Source: Fidelibacterota bacterium (GTDB taxonomy: Bacteria; Fidelibacterota; Marinisomatia; Marinisomatales; JAHJCW01). From it: 64,000 nucleotides of DNA. Below are positions 6,701 to 58,513 of the stretch, piece after piece; within the stretch, counting starts at the first letter, position 1; each line of letters opens with the position of its first letter. The position numbers and the translations under genes were made by a program. Below the pieces are notes generated by a model, which saw only the letters and a program-made list of their open reading frames with translations, did no database searches and had not been told where the DNA came from. The stretch lies in the NCBI GenBank assembly GCA_042577295.1, contig JBHPEE010000001.1, positions 10,506 to 74,505 on the forward strand, read 5' to 3'.

Positions 6701-6987
6701 TCGGTTTTTTCTTGAGTTTGGTAACCGATATACGAAACAGTAATTTTGTAAGGACCTCCTGCTCGCATATTAGGAATGGTAAAAAGACCACCATTTCTGA
6801 CAGATGCTCCATATTGGGCACCACTTGGTTCATGCACTACAACTACATTTGCGCCAACAAGCGGATTGCCATCAGTATCATTTACAAAACCATCAAGACC
6901 AGAAGTTGTGACTCCTTGGGCAAAAATTATGGAAGTGTAAAAAATAAGAATGGTAACTATGGCGCGAAGAGATTTTTGGTGTTTCAT
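3709..6987 (-). CDS. TonB-dependent outer-membrane receptor, Oar-like, with N-terminal carboxypeptidase-regulatory-like domain
   Basis: Signal peptide, then a CarboxypepD_reg-like segment (GFVNDTDGNPLVGANVVV...YKITVSYIGYQ), a long beta-barrel rich in G/N/Y/F and a terminal ...GLRYMF. The ATG at 6987 follows AAGGAG, so it is preferred over the ORF-track start at 7002. Confidence 0.85.
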   Translation of the reverse strand: MKHQKSLRAIVTILIFYTSIIFAQGVTTSGLDGFVNDTDGNPLVGANVVVVHEPSGAQYGASVRNGGLFTIPNMRAGGPYKITVSYIGYQTQEKTDVFLILGQTQGIDFKLEVKAIEMMEVEVAGVQDAVLNSDRTGAATFIGDDLLTQMPSIKRSTRDLTRLDPRSDGNFSFGGKNWLYNNISVDGSNFNNAFGLDDPAPGGQANAESIPFDAVEQVQVSVASFKVTEGGYTGAGINTITKSGTNKFKGSIYTFVQNDRLVGNKVNGNEIFADPDQFYNQTGFTFSGPIIPNKLFFFVNGEMERKEDPGSNFVAAEGNGLGESRVSPSTMDRIRQVMMDVYDYDTGSYQGYKHKTENDKLLLKLDWNISDKHNASFRYNYLDAVRDLGPHGFVLSFNGTGRGPNSTSLPFQNSGYAINNNLHSLAFELNSMFSEKIANHFFASYNRFRDFREPFSADFPTIEIGEDGVTYTTVGYEPFSIHNILDQDVLQITDNISYFMGPHVFTAGVNYEQFKFFNSFNIFRHGLFQLTGDLDLLFPGAGYLDFLGASTYSSLDNFFARTDPDDADNFADFNSFVGSGPFKGELIDVGQFSVYAQDEYVASRNLNLTFGLRVDVPMYNTDPIDNPFSRGLTLLDENDDPETVDQSKLPDPQLLWSPRFGFNWDVKGDRSMQVRGGTGIFTGHLPFVWIGNVLSNPGANPNLYPGEGISENSNETDSGENRDTEGKSVLQQSFDLNAMVEDFKWPQVWTTNFAIDSKLPMGLLGTFEVVYGKDINAIYMRNADLDVPERYLDDGRPYYGATTTDRELNEAYPGEAAGVYVIDNTDEGYNLTITAQVRKEFDSGLNTSLAYTYLQAKNNLKSTEIASVLWQSQPIQGDPNKPNLSYSEFGNRHRIIGTANYTHNWNSEHSSNIGVFVEVAEGNRYTYSGGNRYSFTYAGDVNGDGVGGNDLIYIPNNANDIVLDESSNWNDLNAFIKQDSYLSEHRGEIAERHGLTNPWFSNIDLRVLHNFKTNVGAFQFTIDLLNVANLVNNSWGVRKVASPAATTPLELTGWTDGGEPILKFNSDIKETFIDDPGPFSRWGLQVGLRYMF

Positions 6988-7291
6988 ATTTACTCCTTGC
7001 AAATAATCTTTAAATATTCTAACAAATGAAAGGGGGGCATTTATTAGAGCCTATTGTAAATTTAATTATTAATAATATAATAAAAAAGCATATACAAGAA
7101 AAATGGTATAATATTTAAACAATGTATTAAATATTTAATAGTCTAAAACAAACAAAGGTACTCACAAAAGGTATTTTATTCCTTTCGAGATATTTCTTTT
7201 CGCCATTATATTTCCAAAGAAAGTGTGCCCACTTTGTAGTTTTTTGATGGTATTAAAATATACTATATACTTCACATAAATATATTTAAAT

Positions 7292-9663: not shown

Positions 9664-10071
9664 TGATTCATCCTTAGGTTTATTAATAATATGACCCTAA
9701 TTATGGTTAATTGTTGTCATGCTCTTTCAACTTATTCTTTTGCCTGTTCTCTTTATCCAATCTTAATGGATATGTTGATTGGTCCCGTACCATGAACCTC
9801 CTAATGTCTGACACAGTGGGTAGATCTGAAAAAAATACAAAAACAACCGAATGTATATCTAAGTTATAAAATCTTTGCCTGGATTATGGTATTAATTGTT
9901 TTATTACCACTAAATCTTTTTGAATTTTCGTTTCCATCATTTTTATCTCATTTGATTAACTTTATATGATAAGGCACTTGTGTACATATATCAACAATTA
10001 AACAATAATTCTGTTTAAATTGATTAATGCATTTAACAAATTTTAAACATATTGGAAAGAACGGATATGTC

Positions 10072-12964: not shown

Positions 12965-14371
12965 TTACTTCACATACCAATCAATCATATTTTCAATTGC
13001 TTCAGAGCAAACTTTACAGAACTCGCTACGATTACGAGAAAACATGATGCAGTCCACCTCCGGACGATATAGTCCTTTGGCTAGATAACGTGCCCCTTCA
13101 AAAGCGCCGACTTCTCCATAATATTTCTGAGATTTTAATATAGAACTTGTAGATTTTTTGAATTCATCTGTTAAGTCTTCCATTTCTTTTACACTTGCTC
13201 CTTCATCAACCATATTTTTGCGATTTTTTGAATACTTAAGTGCAATTTTATCATAATCAGATTGATCCCAATATGTAGGAATCGGTGTATTTTCTTCAAC
13301 TAAATGTTTCCATTTTAATTTTTCAGGATCAAATAGAGCAGTCACATTTGGTTTATTTGGCTCAAACTTTGGTGAAGATATTTCATAGGCAGTATCAGAT
13401 GTATAATATTCATCCTCTAATCCTGCAAAAGAATGTCCAAATTCATGTACAAATACATAATCTGCCTCGTTGGATAGTGCAGACACCGTTGACCACAAAT
13501 TATATATGCCACCACCGCCGTATTTTTGATCGTTAAAGATTATCATAATTGCATCATAGGGAGCTTGAGCGGCAATCTCTCGTATTTTTTTATTGGCAAA
13601 TGTTAGAACATATCTATCTGAATCAAAGGAATTAAAACGTAAATCTAGTGCGGACTTCATCCACACATTTTGCCGCGGATTGCTGATACCTATATCCTCT
13701 GAAAACACATCAACCGCCCAAACATTAAAATCTGATTTACGAGACTTAAAAGGCTCGGTATTAAACATCACCCCAATCAAATGCTTAGCATCATTTTTAA
13801 ATTGTTTTGCATCTTCCTTGCGATAGCCATCGCCAAGAATTAGAATATCAACTTTATTTTCTGCTAAACCATTATTAAATATTCTCCACACTTTGTCATT
13901 ATTTGCCACAGACGAACGATTCACAAAACGGCTTGCTGGATCGTGTTCGGTATTATATATTGTTTTATAAGTACCGTCAGGATTGCGCTTTTTCAAGGCT
14001 AATCGGAATGGATGTTTCGGTTCCGGGAATCGTTGTGATTCATGGATAGTACGCCACACGCCGTCTGCGGCTTCGCTGGTAGTCTGCCACTCACCAAAAA
14101 TACTTGCAAAAGCGTAGGAATAGATTATTTGATCTGACGCTACGTCGATTACTTCAAAGCGGTAAAGACCTAAATGCATATCATCAATTAAATTGGTCTT
14201 ACTGCCTGACCAAGCACCCTCCAAGCGAAGTTCATCTAAACTAACGCGTTCCGTGTCGGTTACACCGCTATGAAAATAATCAAACCGAAGTGTATTATCT
14301 GTAAAATAATCAGTGAAGATTATATTTTGACAAAAACCAATGGATAAAATAAATAATAAGATACGATACAT
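12965..14371 (-). CDS. Peptidase M64 (IgA-peptidase-like) family zinc metalloprotease
   Basis: Signal peptide, the [14 protein letters not shown] zinc motif, and an N-terminal beta-rich domain as in the M64 family. Confidence 0.8.
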
Positions 14372-14513
14372 TATTAAAACTCCAATTTCAATTATTGTTC
14401 GGTATTACGCTATAGCATTTAATCTTGTTTTCGCAAACAAAAAAGAGGTTCTAAATTCAAGCTTAATTTTACAGAATAAAAATACATTTCAAACAAATAA
14501 AAAATATATTTCT

Positions 14514-17393
14514 ATGACAAAATCAAACGATTCATTAATCCCGCGCCATATAGGTCCGTCAAAAAAAGACATTCACAAAATGCTAAAGGTTATTGGTTTG
14601 GACTCATTAGAAGATCTAGTAAATGAAACTATTCCTAAATCAATATTAAGCAAGAAACAACTTACAATTGGCAAAGATATTAGTGAATATGATCTTACAC
14701 ATTTATCCAAAATAATTGCTGCTAAAAACACGGTGTTTCGTTCATTTATCGGGCAGGGATATTATGGTACAAAAGTTCCAGCTGTAATTCAGCGTAACAT
14801 TTTGGAGAATCCGGGTTGGTATACGCAATACACACCATATCAAGCGGAAATTTCTCAAGGTCGATTAGAAGCTTTGCTTATTTTCCAAACAATGATATCT
14901 GATCTAACCGGCTTGCCCTTGGCAAATGCATCGTTACTTGATGAGGCAACCGCTTCCGCCGAGGCGATGGCGATGTTCTTCCGCGAAGTAAAAGACAATA
15001 ACCATAATGTATTTTTCGTTTCGGAATTCTGTCATCCACAAACAATTGACGTTCTTAAAACTCGCTCCGCTCCGTTTGGGATTGAATTAATTATTGGGGA
15101 TCATCAATCCTTTGAATTTAATGATAATGTTTTTGGCGCACTTGTTCAATATCCGGCAAGCGATGGTGAAATATTCGATTATACTAATTTCTGTAAATCT
15201 GCCCACAGTTCGGGAGCTTATGTTGCTGTAGCGGCCGATATTATGAGCTTATTATTATTAACCCCACCCGGTGAATTTGGTGCCGATGTTGCCATTGGTA
15301 ATACTCAACGATTTGGTGTACCAATGGGATACGGTGGTCCACACGCCGCTTATTTTGCAGCTAGTGAAAAATTTCAGCGTAAAATTCCCGGCCGGGTAAT
15401 TGGCGTAACGATAGATAGACACGGCAATCAAGCATATCGTATGGCACTACAAACTCGTGAACAGCATATTCGACGTGAGAAGGCCACTTCCAATATTTGC
15501 ACAGCTCAAGTATTATTGGCAATTATGGCCGGAATGTATGCTGTTTATCATGGACCGGAACGCTTAAAACAAATTGCTGAATCTATCCATCAAAAAACAA
15601 AATATTTAGCGCATGGGATTTCAAAGCTTGGTCACAAAGTTATAACCAAATCATATTTCGATACTTTAAGAATATCGTTAAACGGAAAATCCGCTAATGA
15701 AGTGCGTGAACTCACCGAAAAAGCACAAATTAATTTCCGATATTATGATAATGGAGATATTGGAATTAGTTTAGATGAACTAACAACAGAAAAAGATATT
15801 GATGACATTTTAAAAACTTTAGCCACAAATGACATCCATCTACGCCGAGGCTATCGCGGACAGGCTGATAACTCTAATATTAAAAACAAAGAGGATGAAT
15901 ACATTGTTAAATTAAAAAGGAAATCGGACTACTTGACGCATCCAACCTTTAGTTTATATCATTCCGAGACTGAGATGATGCGCTACTTACATCGTTTGGA
16001 AATTAAAGATTTATCGTTAAACACCAGTATGATTCCGCTTGGCTCGTGCACTATGAAACTGAATGCCGCATCCGAAATGATGCCAATATCTTTGCCTGCG
16101 TTCACTGAATTACATCCTTTTGTTCCAACTGAACAAGCACAAGGATATCATCAAATAATTGAGGAATTGGGAAATTATTTGAAAGAAATTACCGGACTAC
16201 CTTCTATTTCTATGCAACCAAATTCAGGAGCTCAAGGAGAATATACCGGATTAATGGTAATTCGAGCCTTTCATCAAAGTAATAATGAATCCGGGCGCAA
16301 TATTTGCTTAATTCCTGCTTCTGCACATGGAACAAATCCGGCAAGCGCCATAATGGCAGGTATGAAAGTTGTCGTTATCAAATGTGATGATAATGGCAAT
16401 ATAGATATTACTGATTTACGAACCAAAGCCGAGCAGTATAGCCAAAACTTGGCGGCATTTATGGTTACCTATCCCTCAACTCACGGCGTTTTTGAAGAAG
16501 CAATCGGTGAAATGTGTGACATAATCCATAAAAATGGCGGACAAGTTTATATGGATGGTGCCAATCTGAATGCAATGGTTGGGCTTTGCTATCCCGCTGA
16601 TTTCGGTGCGGACGTAATTCATATCAATCTGCATAAAACCTTTGCTATTCCACATGGTGGCGGCGGTCCCGGAATGGGTCCAATTTGTGTTGCCAAACAT
16701 CTTGCTGACTTTATACCTAAACACAGTGTCGTTAATACTACTGGTGTAAAAGGCACAACTGCTGTGTCAGCTGCTCCGTGGGGCAGCGCCAATATACTAC
16801 CAATTTCTTGGGCATATATTACAATGATGAATGGTGCCGGGCTAACCCAGGCATCGCAAGTTGCGATACTGAACGCCAACTACATGGCAAAGCGCTTGGA
16901 AGAACATTTCCCCATCCTTTATCACGGTGCTAAAGGAAGAGTTGGACATGAGTTCATAATTGACCTGCGTCCCCTACGTAAAACCTCAGGGATTACCGAA
17001 GAAGATGTTGCCAAACGCTTAATGGACTACGGATACCACGCTCCCACGATGTCCTTTCCTGTTCCCGGAACACTGATGATCGAGCCGACCGAAAGTGAAT
17101 CCAAGACTGAATTAGATAGATTCTGTGAGGCATTAATTTTAATAAAGCAGGAAATTTTAGATGTGGAGAACGGTAAGGCAGACAAAACCAATAATGTTCT
17201 TAAAAACGCTCCGCATACTGCACAGGAAATTGCTTCGGATAATTGGAGTCACCCCTATTCTCGTGAACAAGCTACTTACCCCACCGATTGGCTCAAGGAA
17301 AGCAAGTTTTGGCCTTCAGTTGGGCGTGTTGACAATGCTTATGGTGACAGGCATTTGGTGTGTGCTTGTCCACCAATTGAGGAATATGAATAA
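14514..17393 (+). CDS. gcvP: Glycine dehydrogenase (decarboxylating), single-chain P protein
   Basis: About 960 aa starting [16 protein letters not shown]. It has conserved GcvP blocks ([24 protein letters not shown], the PLP-lysine region [16 protein letters not shown]). The ATG at 14514 is chosen over the ORF-track start at 14340. Confidence 0.95.
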
Positions 17394-17414: not shown

Positions 17415-19286
17415 TTAATTATTCTGCAGTTCTTCTAATTCCGTTAATAAAACGAAATAGGATTCCTCAACTCTTTTCTCTTGCTCCAGAAATTTTTGTA
17501 TCTTCTCATAATCACTTGCAATATTAGGATTTAATAAATCCATTTTAATATTTTCTAAATTTTTTTCTTGCTCTTTGAGCTTTCGTTTTAACACCCTGAT
17601 TCTATTTTCAATCTTCTTTTGTTCTTTATAATTTGATTTATTTTTAGTTGTTGGCTTCTCAATTTTTTCAGTTTTACTGTTCTTATTGATCTCTGATCCC
17701 TTTTTCCAGCTATAATAATCATAATTGCCGGAATATATTACAACTCCACCATTTCCAATATCATATGTAGTATTGGTTATTTCATTTAAAAAATGTCGGT
17801 CGTGAGAAATACATACAATTGTACCTACATATTTCTTCAAGGCTGCTTCCACTACATCACGCGATATCATATCAAGATGATTGGTTGGTTCGTCCAATAG
17901 CAATAAATTGGCAGGTTGAATTAGCATTTTAGCAAGCGCTAAACGCGATTTTTCACCTCCGGAAAGCACCTTAATAAGCTTGCTTACAGAATTACCTGAA
18001 AATAAAAAACTGCCTAAATAACTCCGTATTTCTGATTCATTTTTACCGCTCGAGGCACTTTGCAGTGCTTCAAATACTGTATGATTAGGATTTAGTGTTT
18101 CTAATTGATGTTGGGCAAAATAAGCGATTGTCACATCTTTCCCGGGGCGCAACGTTCCTGTAGAAATCGGTTCAACACCGGCAAGCATTTTTAATAAAGT
18201 TGATTTCCCCGCACCGTTATGACCAACGAGACCTATCGTCTGTCCTCTTTCTATTTCAATATTAAGATTATCGTACACTGAAATCTCATCATAATGTTTA
18301 CTGACATTTTTTAGGCTGACAACTTTCAATGGACTCCTCGAAGGAAGAGGTATTTTTATATTTATACGTTTTTTATTTTGAGTCGGTTCATCGATCAATT
18401 CTAATTTTTCTAATTGTTTGATCTTGCTTTGTACTTGTCTTGATTTAGTATTTTTATAGCGGAATCTCTCAATAAAACGCTTAGTTTGGGCAATCATATC
18501 TTGCTGGTTAGAATATGCAGCTTGCTGTTGCTCTATTCTAATTTGTTTTTGTTTTAGGAAGCTTGAATAATTGCCATTATACAGTATTACTTTGGCCTGG
18601 TCAATTTCAACAATATGATTGACAGATTTATTTAGAAATTCCCGGTCGTGGCTAATCATTACTATGCTTCCTTTCCAGTCCGCAAGAAAACTTTCCAGCC
18701 ATAACGTTGCGTCTAAATCAAGATGATTGGTTGGTTCATCTAAAAATAATACATCGGGGTTTTGTAGCAATATTCCCGCTAAAGCGACACGCATCCGCCA
18801 GCCACCACTGAATGTATCAAGATTTCTTTGAAATTGATCTGTTGTAAACCCAAGACCACCCAAAATTTCTTTGGCTCTCTTATCAATAGTCCATCCACCA
18901 ATACTATCAAATCGTTGTTGCAAATCGCCAAGTATCTTTAGTTTTTTTGTATCGTTAGGATTGTTTGTTATTTCTGATGAAATAATTGCCAGCTTGTTTT
19001 CAATCTCTCGTATTTCAGGAAAAGAACTCAGCACTTCATCAAGTATTGATTGATTAGTACCAATAATAATGTCCTGCGGTAAATGACCTATCGAAAGTCC
19101 TTTGTTTTTCAGAATAGTACCTCCGTCGGGAGATTCATCACCAAGCATTAATCGTAAGAGTGTTGTCTTGCCGGAACCGTTTGGACCAACTAATCCAATG
19201 CACATATTCTTTTTTATCAATAATGATACATTGCTAAATAAAATTCCGTCCGGATATTCCTTTGATATATTATCTAATTGAATCAT
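17415..19286 (-). CDS. ABC-F family ATPase (two ABC domains, no TM domain)
   Basis: Two Walker A motifs (GPNGSGKTT, GHNGAGKST), two LSGG signatures, an inter-domain linker and a C-terminal coiled-coil tail. Confidence 0.9.
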   Translation of the reverse strand: MIQLDNISKEYPDGILFSNVSLLIKKNMCIGLVGPNGSGKTTLLRLMLGDESPDGGTILKNKGLSIGHLPQDIIIGTNQSILDEVLSSFPEIREIENKLAIISSEITNNPNDTKKLKILGDLQQRFDSIGGWTIDKRAKEILGGLGFTTDQFQRNLDTFSGGWRMRVALAGILLQNPDVLFLDEPTNHLDLDATLWLESFLADWKGSIVMISHDREFLNKSVNHIVEIDQAKVILYNGNYSSFLKQKQIRIEQQQAAYSNQQDMIAQTKRFIERFRYKNTKSRQVQSKIKQLEKLELIDEPTQNKKRINIKIPLPSRSPLKVVSLKNVSKHYDEISVYDNLNIEIERGQTIGLVGHNGAGKSTLLKMLAGVEPISTGTLRPGKDVTIAYFAQHQLETLNPNHTVFEALQSASSGKNESEIRSYLGSFLFSGNSVSKLIKVLSGGEKSRLALAKMLIQPANLLLLDEPTNHLDMISRDVVEAALKKYVGTIVCISHDRHFLNEITNTTYDIGNGGVVIYSGNYDYYSWKKGSEINKNSKTEKIEKPTTKNKSNYKEQKKIENRIRVLKRKLKEQEKNLENIKMDLLNPNIASDYEKIQKFLEQEKRVEESYFVLLTELEELQNN

Positions 19287-28872: not shown

Positions 28873-29046
28873 ATTAACCTCCAATTAATAAATTGATAGG
28901 TTATAATATAAATATAGTTGGTGTTTTTAAAAAAAGGGAACTTAATCGAACAGATTAGCAGGCTTCATTGTCAGAAAATAAAATAATATTGTTTAATTTA
29001 CGGTAACCCATCGTGTCAATTGCCTAAAATTACTGTAAATTTGACC

Positions 29047-32546
<3,500 letters not shown>

Positions 32547-46557: not shown

Positions 46558-47772
46558 ATGAGCATTAGTCAAATCGCAAGAAGTCTAACCCCGTCAGCTA
46601 CATTAAAATTAAATGAAAAAGCCACAATATTGCGCCAGAAAGGCGATCCAGTTATTCATTTGGGTGGCGGAGAACCAAAAAGCAAAGCACCTTTTGATGC
46701 TATTTTAGCAACTACCGGATTGCTTGATTCAGGAGAGATTAGATACTCTCCACCGGATGGTACTGTTGCCATGAAAAAGGCGATTATCCGCTATACTGAA
46801 GAACATTACAACCGCTTAGTTGAACCGCGTCAAATCATTGCGTCCAACGGCGCAAAGCAAGCACTAATGGTTGCCTTACAGGCCATCCTAAATCCACACG
46901 AAGAAGTAATTTTCCCTGCACCTTATTGGGTAAGCTACCCAGATATGGTGAAACTTTGTCAAGGTATACCAATCCCCGTCCTGCCGGAAGATGGTACATT
47001 TTATCCAAAATTATCGGATATTGAAGAGAATGTAGGCTCTTATACTAAAGCAGTCATCATCAATAGTCCGAACAATCCGACAGGCGCTGTTTATTCTGAA
47101 GAATTTATTGCTGATATTGTCGAATATTGCCGAAAGCGCGACTTATATCTAATTATGGATGATATTTATAATCGATTAGTCTTTGACAATCGCAAACCAA
47201 GCAATTGTTTTGATTATGTTAAAGATTTTGGTGATAACTCCAAACTGATCCTCATCAATGGAGTTTCGAAACAATATGCTATGACGGGATTTAGAATTGG
47301 ATGGGCAATTGGAAATAAAAATTTAATAGACGTTATGATCAATATTCAAAGTCATCAAACTTCCGGTCCGCCGACAATATCGCAAAAAGCGGCTATTGGT
47401 GCAATTAATGGAGTTCAATCCTCGGTTGAAAATCTTAGAGTATCATTGGAAAACCGAAGAAATATTATGATTGATAATCTAAATTCCTTTGATGGACTAA
47501 AGGTAACAAAACCGGATGGTACATTTTACTGTTTTATAGATTTTAGTCATTATAATTCCAACTCAGTGAAACTTGCAGAATTACTCCTTGAGAAAGTCCA
47601 AGTGATTACAGTTCCGGGCTTGGCATTTGGTCTTGACGGATATTTACGTTTGAGTTATTGTGGTGGTATTAATGATATTCGAGAAGGAATTGAAAGGATT
47701 CAATGGGTTCTTGATCCGGACGCTCCAAACGAACTGTATATTGGTGAACGCAAATTAGTGAGGGATTGGTAA
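46558..47772 (+). CDS. Class I/II PLP aminotransferase (aspartate aminotransferase-like)
   Basis: NSPNNPTG, the PLP-Lys motif VSKQYAMTGFRIGW, and a C-terminal LRLSY. Confidence 0.85.
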   Translation: MSISQIARSLTPSATLKLNEKATILRQKGDPVIHLGGGEPKSKAPFDAILATTGLLDSGEIRYSPPDGTVAMKKAIIRYTEEHYNRLVEPRQIIASNGAKQALMVALQAILNPHEEVIFPAPYWVSYPDMVKLCQGIPIPVLPEDGTFYPKLSDIEENVGSYTKAVIINSPNNPTGAVYSEEFIADIVEYCRKRDLYLIMDDIYNRLVFDNRKPSNCFDYVKDFGDNSKLILINGVSKQYAMTGFRIGWAIGNKNLIDVMINIQSHQTSGPPTISQKAAIGAINGVQSSVENLRVSLENRRNIMIDNLNSFDGLKVTKPDGTFYCFIDFSHYNSNSVKLAELLLEKVQVITVPGLAFGLDGYLRLSYCGGINDIREGIERIQWVLDPDAPNELYIGERKLVRDW

Positions 47773-49421
47773 TGAGTAAATATTTAAAAATAAAATCACC
47801 TAGCGCCAATCAAGCACGTACTCTTGCTTCAACCTACGGGCTTTCTAATCATGGGTTAAAGCATCTTGATACAGTTTATTGGAATCTTTCAACGCCGGCT
47901 TTATATGAAGAGATTATTTTTAGAAATGAGGGTAAAATTGTTAATCAAGGTCCGATTTTAGTAAAAACCGGTAAGCACACTGCACGCGCTGCTAATGACA
48001 AATTTGTAGTTCGTGAAGATACTACACTCGATGATATTTGGTGGGGCGATTATAACCGTCCATTAAGTCCCGAACAGTTTAATACAATATATACGCGGGC
48101 GCAAGCCTATGCGCAAGGGGAAGAAATATTTGTTCAGGATTGTTACGCAGGTAATGACCCAAATTATCGGCTACCGGTACGAATAATCACTGAAAAAGCG
48201 TGGCATAGTTTATTTGCTCGCAATATGCTCATCACGACCACTAATCAAGATGAATTGAAACATTTTATTCCCGAATTTACTGTGATAGCACTTCCTGAAT
48301 TTAAAATGGATCCCAAAATTGATGGCACCAATAGCGATACAACAATTGTAATAAATTTTGAACAAAGAATTGCTATTATTGCAAATTCACTTTATGGTGG
48401 CGAGATAAAGAAAGCGGTTTTTACCGTTTTAAATTTTTTACTCACTTTCAATAATGTTTTGCCTATGCATTGTTCTGCAAATGTAGGTAAAAAAAATGAC
48501 GCTGCTCTCTTTTTTGGGCTGAGCGGAACCGGCAAAACTACTCTTTCGGCCGATCCTAATCGTTTCCTTATCGGAGATGATGAGCATGGTTGGTCAGTTG
48601 ATGGAATTTTTAACTTTGAAGGTGGTTGTTATGCAAAAGTGATTCGTCTTTCCGCAGAACATGAACCTGAAATATTTGCCTGTACAGAAAAGTTTGGTAC
48701 AATTTTGGAAAATGTCGTGTTTGATGAAACAACCCGGAAGATTGATTTAGATGATGATGTTCATACAGAGAATACTAGAATTTCATATCCACTTAGCTAC
48801 ATTCCGAATACAGTTCCGGAAGGTATGGTTAATGTTCATCCAAAAAATATAATATTTTTGACGTGTGATGCGTCTGGTGTAATGCCACCAATTGCACGTC
48901 TAAGTCCGGAGCAAGCCCAATATCATTTCATAAGCGGATATACTTCAAAGGTAGCGGGTACCGAGATCGGATTAGGGATTGAACCTAAAATTACTTTCAG
49001 TGCCTGTTTTGGTGGACCTTTCATGGTGCGACATCCATCGATATATGCCGCTATGCTTAAAGAACGTATGCAAAAGCACGATGCCCAGTGCTGGTTAGTT
49101 AATACTGGTTGGGTTGGTGGTCGCTTTGGCGTTGGTAAACGTATTAGCATTCACCATACTAGAAACTTACTCAACGCAGCATTAGACGGTAAACTAGAAA
49201 AGGTTAAGTTTCGTAAAGACAAACTATTTGGATTCGAAGTCCCGTTATCTTGTCCTAATGTACCTGAAGATATATTAGAACCGGCAAATTCATGGGGCGA
49301 CAAAAAAGATTATTGGAAGAAGTACGATTCTTTAGCGGCTCGCTTTAATCAGAATTTTAAGCTGTTTGCGAACAAATGTTCTCAACCTGTTATTGATGCC
49401 GGGCCGAAAAGACTAAAATAA
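47772..49421 (+). CDS. pckA: Phosphoenolpyruvate carboxykinase (ATP)
   Basis: Kinase-1a FFGLSGTGKTTLS, IGDDEHGW and NTGWVGG. Its ATG overlaps the aminotransferase stop (TAATG). Confidence 0.95.
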   Translation: MSKYLKIKSPSANQARTLASTYGLSNHGLKHLDTVYWNLSTPALYEEIIFRNEGKIVNQGPILVKTGKHTARAANDKFVVREDTTLDDIWWGDYNRPLSPEQFNTIYTRAQAYAQGEEIFVQDCYAGNDPNYRLPVRIITEKAWHSLFARNMLITTTNQDELKHFIPEFTVIALPEFKMDPKIDGTNSDTTIVINFEQRIAIIANSLYGGEIKKAVFTVLNFLLTFNNVLPMHCSANVGKKNDAALFFGLSGTGKTTLSADPNRFLIGDDEHGWSVDGIFNFEGGCYAKVIRLSAEHEPEIFACTEKFGTILENVVFDETTRKIDLDDDVHTENTRISYPLSYIPNTVPEGMVNVHPKNIIFLTCDASGVMPPIARLSPEQAQYHFISGYTSKVAGTEIGLGIEPKITFSACFGGPFMVRHPSIYAAMLKERMQKHDAQCWLVNTGWVGGRFGVGKRISIHHTRNLLNAALDGKLEKVKFRKDKLFGFEVPLSCPNVPEDILEPANSWGDKKDYWKKYDSLAARFNQNFKLFANKCSQPVIDAGPKRLK

Positions 49422-49459
49422 TAATATTTGATAATTATCGGATTTTAGCTCGATACAGG

Positions 49460-50455
49460 TCACACGGCGTGCTGTTTTTTGTGATAATCTGCGGTGTTAA
49501 AATTGTTCTCGGATGAGGCGTTTGGAGTGGTTTTATCATCTTGAGAATTCTTTTTCGGTTTAGTGGTTTTTATTGATTTTACCGATTTTTTCTCAATTTC
49601 ATAATCTTCCGACAATACCTTTTTGATTTTACTTTTTCCTTTACTGGTTATATTTTTAGACTTTCTACGTGGTTTGGGTACATTTTTTACTATTACACTT
49701 AGCAAGTCATCGTCTTCTTCAATTATATTTACTGCCTCATTATCAATAGTCTTCGAGTTTAAAAGTTCTTCATCAAACTTAAAATCTTGTGGATTATATA
49801 AACCATGGATTGCCCCATAACCCCGAGTAATACCGTTGCCTACACCAATATAATTGGGTAATAAAAAATTTGTTTGGAATTCACCGGAAAATGAGCCCCA
49901 GTCATTTTCATGAACCGGTTTTGGGAATAATGAATCGAGTTTTAGCTTGGTATATACTTTATCATTTAGTTCAACTCCCATCTCTCGAGCTAAAAACACT
50001 ATATTTTGACCCAACAAACGGTTTAAAAATGCTGTCCTATCTTTGTTTTTTAAAAATTTATAGCGATTCTGTGTATTTTTACTTAACGCCACCCACGGCG
50101 ACACAAATCTATATCTGAGCAATTGATCAACATGTTTAAATTGATCAATACTTTCTTCAACATCTATTCCTAAAATGTTAAAGGTAATATTCCCAAAATT
50201 TAGCAATTCCAATTCTTTTAACATTTCTAATACAGGGTCAGTTCCATCTTTGATACCTACAAGATAAATCTGTTCATTCAAAATTTTAACTTGAATTCGT
50301 GGATATAAAAACTTCTCACGATAACGACCATCCAACATAGGTATTGCAGAACTATTTGGGTATTGTTTCATAAAAACGCCTTTTACTTGGTAGGCAGTCT
50401 TTTTTACCGGCTTATCAGTTATTAATCGAGCAACAATTGTTTTCACAGATCGCAA
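49460..50455 (-). CDS. Cas6/RAMP-like dual-RRM protein with Lys-rich disordered C-terminal tail (tentative)
   Basis: Exact RAMP glycine-rich loop GVGNGITRGYG (GxGxxxxxGxG) near the end of the globular part. A second-RRM-like onset RYRFVSPWVAL and the helix NRLLGQNIVFLAREMG are present. About 85 aa of K/S/E-rich tail follow. TTG start. Confidence 0.45.
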   Translation of the reverse strand: MRSVKTIVARLITDKPVKKTAYQVKGVFMKQYPNSSAIPMLDGRYREKFLYPRIQVKILNEQIYLVGIKDGTDPVLEMLKELELLNFGNITFNILGIDVEESIDQFKHVDQLLRYRFVSPWVALSKNTQNRYKFLKNKDRTAFLNRLLGQNIVFLAREMGVELNDKVYTKLKLDSLFPKPVHENDWGSFSGEFQTNFLLPNYIGVGNGITRGYGAIHGLYNPQDFKFDEELLNSKTIDNEAVNIIEEDDDLLSVIVKNVPKPRRKSKNITSKGKSKIKKVLSEDYEIEKKSVKSIKTTKPKKNSQDDKTTPNASSENNFNTADYHKKQHAV

Positions 50456-50513
50456 TCCTTGTGACTTTAATATAGATTATAAATAAATTAAAATGAAATC
50501 AGTATTCGCAAAA

Positions 50514-51761
50514 TTATCGACTCATTGTCTCCATAAATTCATCATTGGTTTTTGTTCTTATCATCCTATCTCGTAAAAACTCCATCGCTTCTGTTATTTG
50601 CATTTCGTTCAATAGTTTTCGCAAAATCCAGACGCGCCCTAAAACCATTTTGGATAATAATAATTCTTCTTTTCTAGTGCCAGATCTAACAACGTCAAAT
50701 GAAGGGAATAATCTTCTGTCGCTCAATCTTCGATCTAATACCAACTCCATATTGCCGGTACCTTTAAATTCTTCGAAAATTACTTCATCCATTCTACTGC
50801 CCGTATCAACTAGTGCTGTAGCGATAATCGTGAATGATCCACCTTCTTCGATATTACGTGCTGCTCCAAAAAATTGCTTTGGTTTTTTAAGTGCGTTTGA
50901 ATCTACGCCACCGGATAATATTTTTCCGCTATGCGGGATTACAGCGTTGTGCGCTCTAGCTAAACGAGTTAAACTGTCTAGTAAAATAACAACATCATCT
51001 CCGTACTCTACCATTCGTTTGGCTTTTTGTAATGCCATATCAGCTACAGCGACGTGTCGCTCCGGTGCTTCATCAAAAGTTGAACTTAATACTTCAGCGT
51101 CAACGCTGCGTGCCATATCTGTAACTTCTTCCGGACGTTCATCAATTAGTAGTATTATCATCTTTGTTTTGGGATGATTTTTTCTTATTGAGTTAGCTAT
51201 TTGTTGTAATAATATTGTCTTACCGGTTTTTGGCTGTGCGACAATCAATCCTCTCTGTCCTTTTCCAATCGGGCACATTAAATCCATAATCCGCATTGAT
51301 AAATTCTTTGGCTCTGTCTCTAATGTAAATTTTTCATCGGGATGCAATGGTGTTAAATTATCAAATAACATTACATTTCTTACGTCTTCTGGTGGCCGAT
51401 CATTTACAGTATCAACCTTTAATAATGCATAGAAGCGTTCTTTTGATTTGGGCGGTCTTATTTGTCCGGCCACCTCATGCCCCGTTTTAAGACCAAATCG
51501 TTTTATTTGAGATGGACTAACATAAATATCATTGGGACCTGGTAAATAATTAGAATCGGCGCTGCGCAAAAATCCATAACCATCCGGCAATACTTCTAAA
51601 GTACCACGCGCGAAGAGTGCATCATCATCCTTTGCTTCGGCTTTTAGAATTTGCACGACTAATTCCTGTTTGTTTAGCCCGGAAATATTCTCAATTTTTA
51701 GATCCTTCGCTAATTTTGTTAAGTCTTTAACCTTCAAAGATTGAAGTTCGTTGACATCCAT
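50514..51761 (-). CDS. rho: Transcription termination factor Rho
   Basis: N-terminal Rho_N/CSD-like RNA-binding domain (GYGFLR), Walker A PKTGKT, and Q/R loops. Confidence 0.97.
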
Positions 51762-51850
51762 AATAAATTATCCTTCGGTTTTTCAATTGATTAAAAATAT
51801 ATAAATAAAATCTGGCGCTGTGCGCGTCTTATCGGTAATACTAAGTTACA

Positions 51851-53149
51851 TTAAATGATACCAATGTCAAAGAAAAAATCGTATTCCTTATAAATTGTTT
51901 CTCCTATGTAATGACTGCCAAAGATTAGACCGGGATTTGTATTAGAAACTGCGTTATTAATTATTTTTAGTGCTTTAATTATATCCGGTTCTAACGTAGT
52001 ATTGATTCCAAACTTCGTTAACGAATCATACAAATCTTTGGCCTCCATAAGTCCTAATTTCGGTATACTTGTTACTATTAATTCTTTAAATCGGTTCTTT
52101 AATTTTGGAACAATTAGTTCAATTTCTTTGTCTGCTTTTAATGCTATTAATCCAATTGGTTTATCGTGATATATCATAAATAATGAATCCAACATAACTT
52201 GGATGCCATGTGGATTATGGGCAACATCATAGAAAATTGGAAATGTTTCGTGCATCTTCTGCATTCGTGCAGGCCAGTTCACTTTTTTTAATCCATTGAT
52301 TATTATATCAGACTTGATTTTATTGCTTAATATTTTTGTTGCCTCTATTGCTAGAACGGCATTTCTAGCTTGATGCTCTCCAATCAGACGGGTTTCGTAG
52401 TTTACACCATACCAATTAAAATTTGTTCCCCTTTCGCTAATATTTATGTTTTTTATACCATTCTCTTTACAATATGTAACATTTGAATTTTTTCTATCCG
52501 CTATTTCGAGTAGCACATTTTTTACTTCTTTACTCTGCGATGACAGAATTAACGGCACTCCTTTTTTAATAATACCACCCTTTTCAAATGCGATGGTTTC
52601 TAAATCATCTCCTAATATCTCAGTATGATCTGCTGTAATTGAAGTAATTACAGTAATCTTTGGTTTTATCACATTAGTCGAGTCCAATCGTCCACCGAGA
52701 CCAGTTTCAACAATTGCTATATCTACCTTTTTCTTATTAAAATAATCAAATGTCATTGCTGTGGTCGCTTCAAAAAAAGTAGACTTAATCTCGTTAATTG
52801 CAGAATTGTATTGTGACATAAATTCAACAATACTTTCATCAGAAATAGGTACACCATTTACTCTTATACGCTCGTTGAATCTTATTAAATGCGGTGATGT
52901 ATATAAACCAACACTATATCCTGCTTTGATAAGTATGGAGGCAATCATTGCTGCTGTAGAACCCTTGCCATTCGTGCCGGCAATATGGATTGATTCAAAA
53001 TTATCTTGAGGATTACCGCAAACTCCCATTAGCCTTTGAGTATGCTCTAATCCGACTTTAATACCAAGTCGCTGTAAAGCATATAAATCTTCTAATAATT
53101 GATTAAACTCTGCCGAGTTGGATTTTTTCGACATTTGATATTTTTTCAC
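51851..53149 (-). CDS. folC: Folylpolyglutamate synthase / dihydrofolate synthase
   Basis: P-loop IAGTNGKGST with Mur-ligase middle and C-terminal domains. The start is ambiguous (53149 or 53134) and overlaps the murI 3' end. Confidence 0.9.
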   Translation of the reverse strand: MKKYQMSKKSNSAEFNQLLEDLYALQRLGIKVGLEHTQRLMGVCGNPQDNFESIHIAGTNGKGSTAAMIASILIKAGYSVGLYTSPHLIRFNERIRVNGVPISDESIVEFMSQYNSAINEIKSTFFEATTAMTFDYFNKKKVDIAIVETGLGGRLDSTNVIKPKITVITSITADHTEILGDDLETIAFEKGGIIKKGVPLILSSQSKEVKNVLLEIADRKNSNVTYCKENGIKNINISERGTNFNWYGVNYETRLIGEHQARNAVLAIEATKILSNKIKSDIIINGLKKVNWPARMQKMHETFPIFYDVAHNPHGIQVMLDSLFMIYHDKPIGLIALKADKEIELIVPKLKNRFKELIVTSIPKLGLMEAKDLYDSLTKFGINTTLEPDIIKALKIINNAVSNTNPGLIFGSHYIGETIYKEYDFFFDIGII

Positions 53150-53912
53150 CTAAAAACCGACTTGCAACAGTTTCGAACCTTGCTGGAAGATCAGATACAA
53201 AAAGCTTTAAATCGCCTTTAGTGTTTTGGTCATTCAGTAATCCATAATTCATTAATAATTCCGCTGTTTCAGCAGCCATCGCTTGCGCGGAATCAACTAA
53301 TTGTATTTTAGAGGATACAACCTCTTGTATGACTTTCTTTAGTAACGGATAGTGCGTACAGCCTAATATCAACGTGTCAACATTTGCTTCATTGATGGGC
53401 TCAAGATATTTTTCAGCAATTAACCTAGTCACCGGTTCATCGATCCAACCCTCCTCAGCGAGTGGTACAAATAATGGACAGGAAGCTGAGGTGACCATAA
53501 CAGAATGATTATTGATTTTTAACTCAGCTTCATATACACCGGAACCAATTGTTGAAATTGTTCCAATTACACCAATACGATCGTTTTGAGTAAGTTTTAA
53601 TGCGGAATCGACCCCAGGTTTCACAACTCCGATAATGGGAATATCCAATTTATCCTGCAGTGTGTGGAGAGCCAAAGCAGTTGCAGTATTACAAGCCACA
53701 ACAATTATTTTGGTACCACGCTCGAACAAAAAATCTGCTATTTGCAGGCTATATTCTTTAATAAGCTCCGGACTTTTATTTCCGTACGGTACACGTGCTG
53801 TGTCACCGAAATATATGATTGATTCATTTGGTAATACATTCCGTATTGCCTTGACAACAGTAAGTCCACCTAAGCCTGAATCAAATAAACCAATAGGGTT
53901 TTGATTCTTCAT
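53103..53912 (-). CDS. murI: Glutamate racemase
   Basis: DSGLGGLTV, the catalytic Cys motifs VVACNTA and LGCTHYP. Confidence 0.93.
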   Translation of the reverse strand: MKNQNPIGLFDSGLGGLTVVKAIRNVLPNESIIYFGDTARVPYGNKSPELIKEYSLQIADFLFERGTKIIVVACNTATALALHTLQDKLDIPIIGVVKPGVDSALKLTQNDRIGVIGTISTIGSGVYEAELKINNHSVMVTSASCPLFVPLAEEGWIDEPVTRLIAEKYLEPINEANVDTLILGCTHYPLLKKVIQEVVSSKIQLVDSAQAMAAETAELLMNYGLLNDQNTKGDLKLFVSDLPARFETVASRFLGEKISNVEKIQLGRV

Positions 53913-55557: not shown

Positions 55558-55666
55558 TTATTTTTTGAACCTAGGATCACTATCGACCTGATTTCGAGAC
55601 CCTTTCATAAGGCTATATGCTATTAAAAGCCGCACTAAATAAGTAACAGAAAATAAGGAAAATCCA
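55558..55666 (-). pseudogene. Relic of the 3' end of a GT2 glycosyltransferase gene
   Basis: The minus-strand translation ...VTYLVRLLIAYSLMKGSRNQVDSDPRFKK* parallels the C-terminus of the intact GT2 gene (...PYLVRFFIAYSLMKGSRNPAEGMHKFQSM*). The 49-nt core 55595-55643 matches 57621-57669 at 44/49 nt. Confidence 0.55.
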
Positions 55667-57580: not shown

Positions 57581-58513
57581 TTACATTGATTGGAATTTAT
57601 GCATTCCTTCTGCCGGGTTACGAGACCCTTTCATAAGACTATATGCTATGAAAAACCGTACTAAATATGGATTTGGAATCACAAGATAAATAATCTTAAC
57701 GATTGAATTAACCATTGGATTAAAAACTAATTTACCCTTAAGTGAATTTATCCAGTCACCCGCCAAATCTTCAGTATGGTCAGGATATCTTTCTAATAAT
57801 CTTAAGTAGTTTGTTTTACCGTAGTTTTCCATCTTTTCCTGCAATTCACTAAGTGGACGCTGATGATAATGTTCACCAACAGCTGTAGATAAGAATCTAA
57901 GTCCAAACGGGTGTTGATCCCACAAACGGATTGCAAAATCAGTGTCCTCTCCACCATAGCTCGTAATACTTTCGTCAAATATACCAACTTCATTTATGGC
58001 CTTTCTTTTAACGGTAGTATTATTTAATAGAAACCATTTAAATCGAATGGCCTTGTTTTCTCCATGTTTGAGCACACCTCTTGTTGGATTGTATAAAAAT
58101 TTATCTAAAGTATTTGGAATTAAAGATTCTGCTAATTTTATTCCCCCCATACAGGCCACTACTCCATCTTTTGATAATTCGCATATCATCTGTTTTGCCC
58201 AGTTTTTTTTAACAACCATATCACTATCAAGAAATCCGATAATTATAGATTTGCTTGCTTTTATTCCGCTGTTTCGTGCCGCAGAGAGACCCCTATTCCG
58301 AAAATGTTTAATTATCTTAACTTGGGTATTTTTATGATATTGCTCAATTATTTGACCCGTATTGTCAGTTGATTTATCATCAATGATAATAATAGATAAT
58401 TTGTTTTTCGGATAATCTTGCTCCAGAAGTGCGTTAATGCAACGTTCAACTACATGCTCTACGTTATAACAAGGGACTACTATTGATAATGTTGGAAATT
58501 CTGCTAAATCCAT
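57581..58513 (-). CDS. Family 2 glycosyltransferase
   Basis: LSIVVPCYNVEHVVERCINALLEQDY, IIIDDKSTD and the DSD (DxD) motif. Confidence 0.85.
   Translation of the reverse strand: MDLAEFPTLSIVVPCYNVEHVVERCINALLEQDYPKNKLSIIIIDDKSTDNTGQIIEQYHKNTQVKIIKHFRNRGLSAARNSGIKASKSIIIGFLDSDMVVKKNWAKQMICELSKDGVVACMGGIKLAESLIPNTLDKFLYNPTRGVLKHGENKAIRFKWFLLNNTTVKRKAINEVGIFDESITSYGGEDTDFAIRLWDQHPFGLRFLSTAVGEHYHQRPLSELQEKMENYGKTNYLRLLERYPDHTEDLAGDWINSLKGKLVFNPMVNSIVKIIYLVIPNPYLVRFFIAYSLMKGSRNPAEGMHKFQSM

Follow-up and report, generated by a model that had tools for sequence, protein, structure and literature searches.

Cas6 proteins inside and outside CRISPR immunity

The closest characterised relative of the protein considered here is the Cas6b endoribonuclease of the type I-B CRISPR system of Methanococcus maripaludis, in which cleavage depends jointly on the histidines H38 and H40, and the substitution Y47A lowers activity (PMC3479195). 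The gene encoding the relative lies on the minus strand of a 64,000-nucleotide (nt) stretch from a Fidelibacterota bacterium (assembly GCA_042577295.1, contig JBHPEE010000001.1, positions 10,506 to 74,505; hereafter the window), directly downstream of rho. It is labelled here cas6bL, and its product Cas6bL, for Cas6b-like. The comparisons presented below make it very probable that Cas6bL is a Cas6b derivative that has been freed from CRISPR immunity and is now maintained by the host, next to rho, in all the Fidelibacterota that were compared.

Cas6bL shares with the M. maripaludis enzyme (4Z7K/4Z7L) a tandem RNA recognition motif (RRM) fold, with a template-modelling (TM) score of 0.82, as well as the glycine-rich loop GhGxxxxxGhG and the PW.AL and YPR.Q motifs, and it is 25-37% identical to canonical members of the family. 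In contrast to type I-B Cas6b, it lacks the H-x-H pair, usually has a phenylalanine in place of Tyr47, lies outside any cas operon, with no array nearby and a fixed position downstream of rho, evolves slowly and vertically, and carries in its main lineage a conserved extension of about 110 amino acids (aa). A second Cas6 of interest is Sso1437 from Sulfolobus solfataricus, which likewise folds as a Cas6, lacks the canonical histidine of the active site and still cleaves via a network of lysines and arginines (PMC3652601). Unlike Cas6bL, Sso1437 is a bona fide enzyme of CRISPR RNA (crRNA) processing from CRISPR-rich genomes, and the two are only distantly related.

The reuse of Cas proteins and of repeat-associated mysterious proteins (RAMPs) has been catalogued previously (PMC8730458), and comprises the Csf5/Cas6 proteins of type IV systems, the Cas6 proteins of type I-B and I-F CRISPR-associated transposons (CAST), a Streptomyces module that combines type I-E-derived components with an NTPase of the STAND class, and the haloarchaeal HRAMP. 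Cas6bL resembles these cases as a Cas protein apparently reused outside adaptive immunity, and some of them also do without arrays or adaptation genes. Nevertheless, the catalogued exaptations consist of several genes, carried by mobile elements such as transposons and plasmids or by defence islands, and still work with Cas5, Cas7 or Cas8, whereas Cas6bL is a lone Cas6b gene in a housekeeping operon, spread over a whole phylum. Two overviews that treat the Cas families and how they have been reused (PMC8730458, PMC3150331) include no Cas6 standing alone in an operon of housekeeping genes, and no rho-linked case is listed in the former. A literature search on orphan, solo or inactive natural Cas6 proteins, and on Cas6 in SAR406/Fidelibacterota, returned nothing relevant, and the description of Fidelibacter multiformis makes no mention of CRISPR or Cas6. 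No earlier description of a rho-linked Cas6b relative was found. In public annotation the members of the family appear as 'CRISPR-associated endonuclease Cas6' or as 'hypothetical protein'.

A Cas6b-family protein encoded next to rho

The features of the rho-cas6bL region and of the Cas6b core, all on the minus strand, are as follows; residue numbers, here and throughout, follow the 331-aa (TTG-initiated) form of the protein.

50514..51761, minus strand: rho, encoding the 415-aa transcription termination factor Rho, the partner found upstream without exception
50447..50513, minus strand: spacer of 67 nt between rho and cas6bL, free of terminator-like sites
49460..50446, minus strand: probable cas6bL coding sequence, GTG start at 50446, 328 aa, TGA stop at 49460-49462
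50144..50446, minus strand: N-terminal RRM/ferredoxin-like half (Cas6b_N), residues ~4-104, supported by PF17955, model confidence above 90 and the Foldseek match to 4Z7K
50309..50344, minus strand: degenerate catalytic segment IPMLDGRYREKF, residues 38-49, in place of H38-N-H40...Y47
49802..50143, minus strand: C-terminal RRM half (Cas6b_C), residues ~105-218, supported by PF17262, the predicted structure and Foldseek
49814..49846, minus strand: glycine-rich loop GVGNGITRGYG, residues 204-214, fitting GhGxxxxxGhG

The original prediction had described a protein of the Cas6/RAMP type, which can now be assigned more specifically to Cas6b by profile, sequence and fold. The Pfam models Cas6b_N (PF17955; 36.0 bits, cut-off 25) and Cas6b_C (PF17262; 86.2 bits, cut-off 39.4) together cover residues 4-217. 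The Cas6 and Cas6b models of PADLOC match at about E=1e-38 to 1e-40 (Cas6b, E=6e-38), and the sequence match in the Protein Data Bank (PDB) is M. maripaludis Cas6b, 4Z7K (E=6e-25); no NCBIfam model matches the protein. With regard to structure, an initial AlphaFold2 (AF2) model built from 16 close homologues was poor, with a predicted local distance difference test (pLDDT) value of 52, and was superseded by one based on a 129-sequence alignment across the Cas6b family, which reached a pLDDT of 84 and a predicted TM score (pTM) of 0.76, with residues 1-220 above 90. Foldseek searches of the PDB with this model gave 4Z7K_A as the best match (E=3e-18, TM 0.82, target-normalised), followed exclusively by Cas6-family proteins for about 30 ranks; Csf5 and CAST Cas6 are among the structural neighbours. 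Because the Pfam and PADLOC profiles, the PDB match, the predicted fold and the Foldseek ranking agree, the protein is, by profile and model, a genuine member of the Cas6b family.

The structural details proposed from the sequence alone were largely borne out. The model shows the tandem RRM fold, put forward for comparison by Foldseek, at high confidence, and its predicted secondary structure consists of two beta-alpha-beta-type halves. The segment RYRFVSPWVAL and the helix that follows it, NRLLGQNIVFLAREMG, are both present, as is the loop GVGNGITRGYG, which matches the GhGxxxxxGhG pattern. Conservation of this loop among orthologues, which had been named as a check, was observed: a set of 16 diverse orthologues shares G204, G206, N207, G208, I209, T210, R211, G212 and G214 without exception, and in the alignment of the entire Cas6b family G206 and G214 never vary, with G204 and G212 at least 90% conserved. 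The extent of the globular part needs correction, as the Cas6b core stops at about residue 218 rather than after about 245 aa.

The open reading frame (ORF) at 49460..50455 on the minus strand is present and encodes 331 aa from a TTG start at 50455. The TTG immediately adjoins a Shine-Dalgarno-like AAGGA at 50456-50460, the start region reading AAGGA-TTGCGATCT-GTG. The GTG at 50446 appears to be the more likely start, because it follows the AAGGA by 9 nt and because the N-termini of close homologues align as MKTIV; the true product is therefore probably 328 aa long, and the TTG chosen by the ORF finder is likely wrong. The reported distance of 58 nt after rho holds for the TTG form (rho stop at 50514) and becomes 67 nt with the GTG start. 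Base composition is uniform across the 64 kb, at about 35% GC.

Loss of the Cas6b catalytic residues

As endoribonucleases of crRNA processing, Cas6b enzymes cut the repeat RNA at a site 8 nt before the 3' end. In pairwise and multiple alignments of the window protein with M. maripaludis Cas6b, H38 corresponds to P39, H40 to a gap and Y47 to F49; the catalytic H-x-H pair and Tyr47 of Cas6b are thus all missing from the window protein. The loss of the histidine pair, usually along with that of the tyrosine, is a property of the whole rho-linked set. In the 129-sequence alignment, a histidine within the segment was found in none of 58 rho-linked proteins as against 69 of 71 canonical ones, and the Tyr47 position is occupied by phenylalanine in 42/58 and by tyrosine in 12/58 of the rho-linked proteins, compared with tyrosine in 63/71 of the canonical set. 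Among 85 unique family members there are no conserved histidine columns in the core, the only conserved histidines being H325 and H329 in the tail. Cas6bL probably arose within the His-bearing Cas6b family through loss. Among other residues that might serve in catalysis, RRM1 retains the invariant basic and tyrosine residues K15, K19, Y22, K25, Y45, R46, R53 and K57.

Pairing with rho across the Fidelibacterota

The distribution of the family was assessed by scanning one genome per GTDB species, which gave 180 species with a relative, of which 80 loci were obtained. Every record that names a phylum names Marinimicrobia/Fidelibacterota, and many records say just 'bacterium'. A protein database search returned 1063 clusters, the best 120 of which are 52-92% identical to the window protein over about 99% of its length, measure 300-350 aa and, where named, belong to Candidatus Neomarinimicrobiota, Marinimicrobia or Fidelibacterota. 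Near-identical members carry labels of Thermodesulfobacteriota, Planctomycetia or Lentisphaeria metagenome-assembled genomes (P0044, P0062/P0063, P0290). These are probably mis-binned contigs, given that the family is otherwise exclusive to the Fidelibacterota in distribution and synteny.

Conservation of the position next to rho, proposed as a check, was found in every locus that could show it: rho lies immediately upstream on the same strand in 81 of 81 species-representative loci with room upstream, as well as in the deep-branching, tail-less relatives with upstream sequence. The gap between rho and the gene is below 400 nt in 79 of the 81 loci when measured from BLAST ends, and slightly larger in the other two; measured by ORF ends, its median is 54 nt, with most values at 12-151 nt. 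The rho orthologues carry Rho_N, Rho_RNA_bind and ATP-synt_ab domains, and the Rho of the window is typically 67-99% identical to those of related loci. A scan of positions 49200-52100 revealed no terminator-like site between rho and cas6bL, and the two genes are probably co-transcribed.

In marine lineages the pair sits in the block amidase - murI - folC - rho - cas6bL - (pckA/aminotransferase) - rpmE - DUF1385 - prfA - prmC - ubiA - dnaE. The flanks differ by lineage, with at least three unrelated types, namely folC with pckA or an aminotransferase, carotenoid genes with ubiA-dnaE, and pyr genes with lspA, as illustrated by the following loci of deep-branching, tail-less relatives, in which 'gene' stands for the cas6bL homologue.

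P0140: amidase-folC-rho-(25 nt)-gene
P0145: rho fragment-gene
P0146: amidase-murI-folC-rho-gene-aminotransferase-rpmE
P0164: rho-gene-aminotransferase-rpmE-DUF1385-prfA
P0147: pyr genes (opposite strand), rho-(13 nt)-gene, lspA
P0175: rho fragment-gene-aminotransferase-DUF1385
P0150 cluster: carotenoid genes (opposite strand), rho-(12 nt)-gene, ubiA-dnaE
P0219: folC-rho-(14 nt)-gene-aminotransferase-rpmE-DUF1385-prfA

Because both flanks vary while the pair persists with very short gaps, it is rho and its partner that form the conserved unit. The last of these loci was chosen blind, by tree grouping and the absence of the histidines, and the predicted rho linkage was then confirmed. The P0150 cluster includes the protein of the cultured F. 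multiformis (WP_400166801.1), whose strain IA91 carries the tail-less form. In one further case (P0144) the contig stops just upstream of the gene, leaving no room for rho.

Two observations concern the surroundings of the pair in the window. The window's clade has a pckA gene, which together with the aminotransferase gene forms an inverted pair (46558-49421, plus strand) that converges on cas6bL. Most other lineages (compared in L001, L011, L089 and others) have an aminotransferase only, encoded on the cas6bL strand, so that variation affects the downstream flank and not the rho side. Upstream, the folC-like (51851-53149, minus strand) and murI (53103-53912, minus strand) ORFs overlap by 47 nt as listed.

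Absence of a local CRISPR context

The absence of CRISPR repeats and cas genes from the 64 kb, as reported at the outset, was confirmed by a repeat scan and by Cas models. No CRISPR-like or tandem repeats and no Rfam matches were found in the window, and of the 49 ORFs in the window with 150 aa or more, cas6bL alone matched a Cas model. There are no other cas genes near cas6bL in the window, and in every related locus it is surrounded by housekeeping genes. A simple array detector was also run over 95 sequences (1.63 Mb in total, flanks of up to 10 kb), and found no array in the rho-linked loci, the only array detected being that of the canonical control, L091.

Several window ORFs gave side-matches to the PADLOC defence library (mad1/2/3/8, AriA, DndA/SspA and HEC), the ORFs concerned including 3709-7002, 14340-17393, 17415-19286 and 29020-30516. 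A defence island was considered and rejected, as the larger ORFs checked by Pfam are an outer-membrane barrel, GcvP, an ABC-F ATPase and class-V aminotransferases. The side-matches, which were not individually mapped to ORFs, are probably housekeeping paralogues.

The boundary with canonical Cas6b and the rate of evolution

An exhaustive HMMER search over 1.84 billion representatives revealed a sharp transition between the family and canonical Cas6b. Tail-bearing proteins of 300-350 aa extend down to about 40% identity and are followed by a handful of intermediates (218-264 aa, 27-37% identity), beyond which lie typical Cas6b proteins of 215-230 aa and 23-30% identity. A canonical control, P0168, bears the histidines, is 31% identical to the window protein and lies inside the operon cas8-cas7-cas5-cas3-cas6b-cas1-cas2-cas4, which adjoins an array of at least 16 repeats of the sequence GTCGAGAGGTAAGTTCCATTAAAACAAGGATTGAAAC. 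In a neighbour-joining tree the rho-linked set, a group defined by its rho linkage, forms one bipartition, recovered in 32 of 50 bootstrap replicates.

Selection and inheritance were assessed in comparisons with relatives. The gene is under strong purifying selection: the ratio of non-synonymous to synonymous substitution rates (dN/dS), calculated against close relatives, is 0.04-0.10 for the Cas6b core. Over 50 loci, identity to the window protein correlates with the identity of murI and rpmE (Spearman 0.76), and mean identity is 53% for cas6bL overall and 61% for its core, next to 56% for murI and 51% for folC. Defence genes tend to be patchy, fast-evolving and located in variable islands, whereas cas6bL shows fixed synteny in all species examined and a low dN/dS. 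As judged from these comparisons, its pattern of evolution is that of a vertically inherited housekeeping gene and not that of a defence gene. The suggestion that a RAMP/Cas6 protein had been domesticated outside CRISPR immunity is thereby supported by the existence of a vertically inherited, rho-linked, His-less clade across the Fidelibacterota.

The C-terminal extension

Beyond the core, the window protein carries a tail in which three segments can be distinguished.

49463..49801, minus strand: tail, residues 219-331, missing in canonical Cas6b and in deep-branching rho-linked relatives
49661..49708, minus strand: tail segment LLSVIVKNVPKPRRK, residues ~250-265, predicted to dock on the core as an extra strand
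49592..49624, minus strand: acidic/basic motif KKVLSE(E/D)(F/Y)EIE, consensus KKVLSEEFEIEE, residues 278-288, conserved in the alignment, with pLDDT below 50
49469..49501, minus strand: C-terminal motif FNTADYHKKQH, residues 319-329, predicted to form a short helix over 322-328

The tail had been described as polybasic, about 85 aa long and probably disordered. It is in fact longer, at about 111 aa, and of mixed charge (23 K+R and 19 D+E over 111 residues), and the proposed disorder holds only in part: pLDDT falls below 50 for residues 278-314 only and reaches 90-96 around residues 250-265, and the three motifs are conserved. The segment LLSVIVKNVPKPRRK contains a predicted strand at 252-255 and the conserved residues V259, P260 and P262, and the tail also includes PKPRRK along with this docked strand. 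At the C-terminus, F319, N320, H325, Q328 and H329 are invariant in the orthologue alignment, and the terminal motif FN(T/S)xEYHKKQH was found, by a strict pattern, in 67 of 80 tail-bearing loci. The tail has a dN/dS of 0.17-0.28 against close relatives. No separate tail-like ORF was found near the tail-less lineage members. As rho linkage and the loss of the histidines are also seen in the tail-less deep branches, the sequences suggest that the tail is a later addition in the main marine lineage.

The rho-cas6bL spacer and the search for RNA targets

A recurrent motif, (A)GGTGTAG(C)A, was detected between rho and the gene in related lineages, the window's clade and the tail-less ones excepted. 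Of 84 spacers, 39 carry it where about one would be expected, a count that is inflated by kinship. The form GTGTAGCA occurs 43 times in 1.58 Mb, and 27 of these occurrences fall within the rho-gene spacer, which makes up about 0.3% of the sequence. The motif is located at the Shine-Dalgarno site or 24-47 nt upstream, occasionally in two copies, and was found in the related loci L009-L082 (for example, L023, ~9960-10000). Autoregulation or RNA processing may take place at this site. No hairpin or other secondary structure common to the occurrences of GGTGTAGCA was consistently found.

The spacer of the window itself contains the 10-nt sequence ACAAGGATTG at 50453-50462 (minus strand), which is identical to the part of the type I-B repeat of the P0168 locus that spans the cleavage site (…AAAACAAGG|ATTGAAAC); none of 200 shuffles reached a 10-nt identity. 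The identity is nevertheless probably due to chance, being limited to one clade, the window's close relatives, and overlapping both the Shine-Dalgarno sequence and the TTG.

With regard to other targets, a multi-copy RNA target within the window was considered and set aside, as no dispersed repeat family and no terminator-like site was found there. No Rfam family matched at the gathering cut-off in the window, or at E<=5 near cas6bL. Apart from this, a 55-nt direct repeat with 87% identity is present in two copies 2 kb apart, at 55587-55641 and 57613-57667. The first copy lies in an unusually long gap of 266 nt between a Wzi-like ORF and the amidase gene, and the second at the 3' end of a glycosyltransferase ORF (57581..58513); the repeat may be the remnant of a local rearrangement.

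Possible functions of Cas6bL and alternative explanations

With regard to function, the account favoured on balance, if by no great measure, is that Cas6bL is a domesticated Cas6b-derived RNA-binding protein of the Fidelibacterota (SAR406/Marinimicrobia) that is co-expressed with Rho and acts on host transcripts. This mechanistic proposal is drawn from a fold that has been kept, an active site that has been lost and a gene order that has remained fixed. The core would retain the ability to bind a specific RNA through the net-basic Cas6 RNA-binding surface, while its canonical cleavage chemistry would have been lost, and the extension would provide additional contacts with RNA or with a partner. 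Cas6bL would then act on host transcripts together with Rho, possibly by marking or shielding RNAs for Rho-dependent termination. Alternatively, it could control the expression of the rho-cas6bL operon, in the manner of dead Cas6 proteins, which repress translation from a position near a ribosome-binding site.

Engineered Cas6 proteins provide a parallel for such a role. Dead Cas6 tools (for example, PMC13478208 and PMC12475213) bind a short RNA tag without cutting it and thereby control the fate of the transcript, which resembles the tight, non-cutting binding of an RNA tag proposed for Cas6bL, and an inactive Cas6 has been used as a translational repressor (PMC13478208). Unlike Cas6bL, these tools are artificial, and a counterpart in nature is not known to have been described; by analogy with the engineered repressors, a mode of action of this type is feasible. 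In its most specific form, the proposal would make Cas6bL a natural 'dead Cas6', that is, a sequence-specific reader of RNA tags that recruits Rho to defined transcripts, its own operon included, or shields them from Rho by means of the extension; in this full form it is considered unlikely. The accessory factors of Rho (NusG, Rof/YaeO, Psu and Hfq) would have in common with Cas6bL only a Rho-modulating role, suggested for the latter by gene order. They show no sequence or fold similarity to it, and none of them is a RAMP.

Several points weigh against a non-cleaving RNA-binding protein that works with Rho. The link to Rho is drawn from gene order, and both RNA binding and contact with Rho are inferred. 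Support for the rho-linked clade is moderate (64%), in a quick tree without an outgroup. In the spacers compared, neither the window's clade nor the tail-less lineages have the candidate cis-motif GGTGTAGCA. The scans for CRISPR-cas cover the 64-kb window and flanks of up to 10 kb, so that such a system may be present elsewhere in the genomes of some members. Moreover, by analogy with the His-less Cas6 that can cleave (PMC3652601), the loss of H38 and H40 does not prove inactivity, and the invariant K15, K19, K25, R46, R53 and K57 could replace the histidines.

The last of these points leads to the alternative that survives best, although it is itself rather unlikely, namely that Cas6bL is still an active sequence-specific endoribonuclease that uses a non-His site to cut host RNA, be it the rho-cas6bL transcript or a stable RNA in need of maturation. 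The Lys/Arg-based cleavage by the S. solfataricus enzyme (PMC3652601) provides a precedent, and the glycine-rich loop is conserved together with the basic and tyrosine residues of RRM1 (K15, K19, Y22, K25, Y45, R46, R53 and K57). The locus-specific spacer motif upstream of the gene in many lineages could be a cleavage site. The invariant Y-H-K-K-x-H of the terminal helix offers the residue types of the Cas6 catalytic triad, but this helix is missing from the tail-less members and thus cannot be an active site common to the family. Furthermore, all three residues that are important in the closest characterised enzyme have been replaced, and neither a conserved structure nor a repeat-like substrate was found in the spacers and sequences searched.

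It is distinctly unlikely that the position next to rho reflects mere co-transcription and that Cas6bL works elsewhere in RNA metabolism, for instance with ribosomes or translation factors, or as a general RNA chaperone by means of its charged tail. The genes rho-rpmE-prfA-prmC form an old synteny block in many bacteria, and cas6bL is inserted within this block. The charged, partly disordered tail would be reminiscent of the extensions of ribosome-associated proteins. Nevertheless, the Fidelibacter and P0147 lineages have lost the rpmE/prfA neighbours and have kept the pairing with rho, at a gap of 12-13 nt, which argues that rho, and not the translation genes, is the constant partner.

Finally, an ordinary Cas6 that has moved away from its CRISPR-cas locus, located in another part of the genome, but continues to mature crRNAs would fit the full-length Cas6b profile match, the NCBI label 'CRISPR-associated endonuclease Cas6' of the orthologues, a scan of the window and its relatives' flanks of up to 10 kb rather than of whole genomes, and the 10-nt match to the I-B repeat, but it is highly improbable in view of the constant post-rho position in all species examined, the absence of a catalytic-segment histidine from all 58 rho-linked proteins, an evolution that is housekeeping-like rather than patchy, the lack of cas genes and arrays in the 64 kb and of arrays within 10 kb in about 95 loci, and a conserved extra tail that is unknown in Cas6b.

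Significance

The reading of Cas6bL as a host gene paired with rho would have direct consequences for annotation, as the label 'CRISPR-associated endonuclease Cas6' would wrongly imply CRISPR immunity in SAR406 genomes. The protein appears to be tractable, being small and soluble-looking, with the cultured F. multiformis providing the tail-less form and ocean metatranscriptomes covering the tailed one. If the non-cleaving mode of action is correct, Cas6bL would be a natural counterpart of the engineered 'dead Cas6' tools, and, should it read tags in connection with Rho, it would be the first Cas-derived part of the core transcription-termination machinery and a domestication on the scale of a phylum. 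A single Cas6b fixed with rho across a globally abundant marine phylum would represent a different kind of domestication, leading from immunity to core RNA metabolism.

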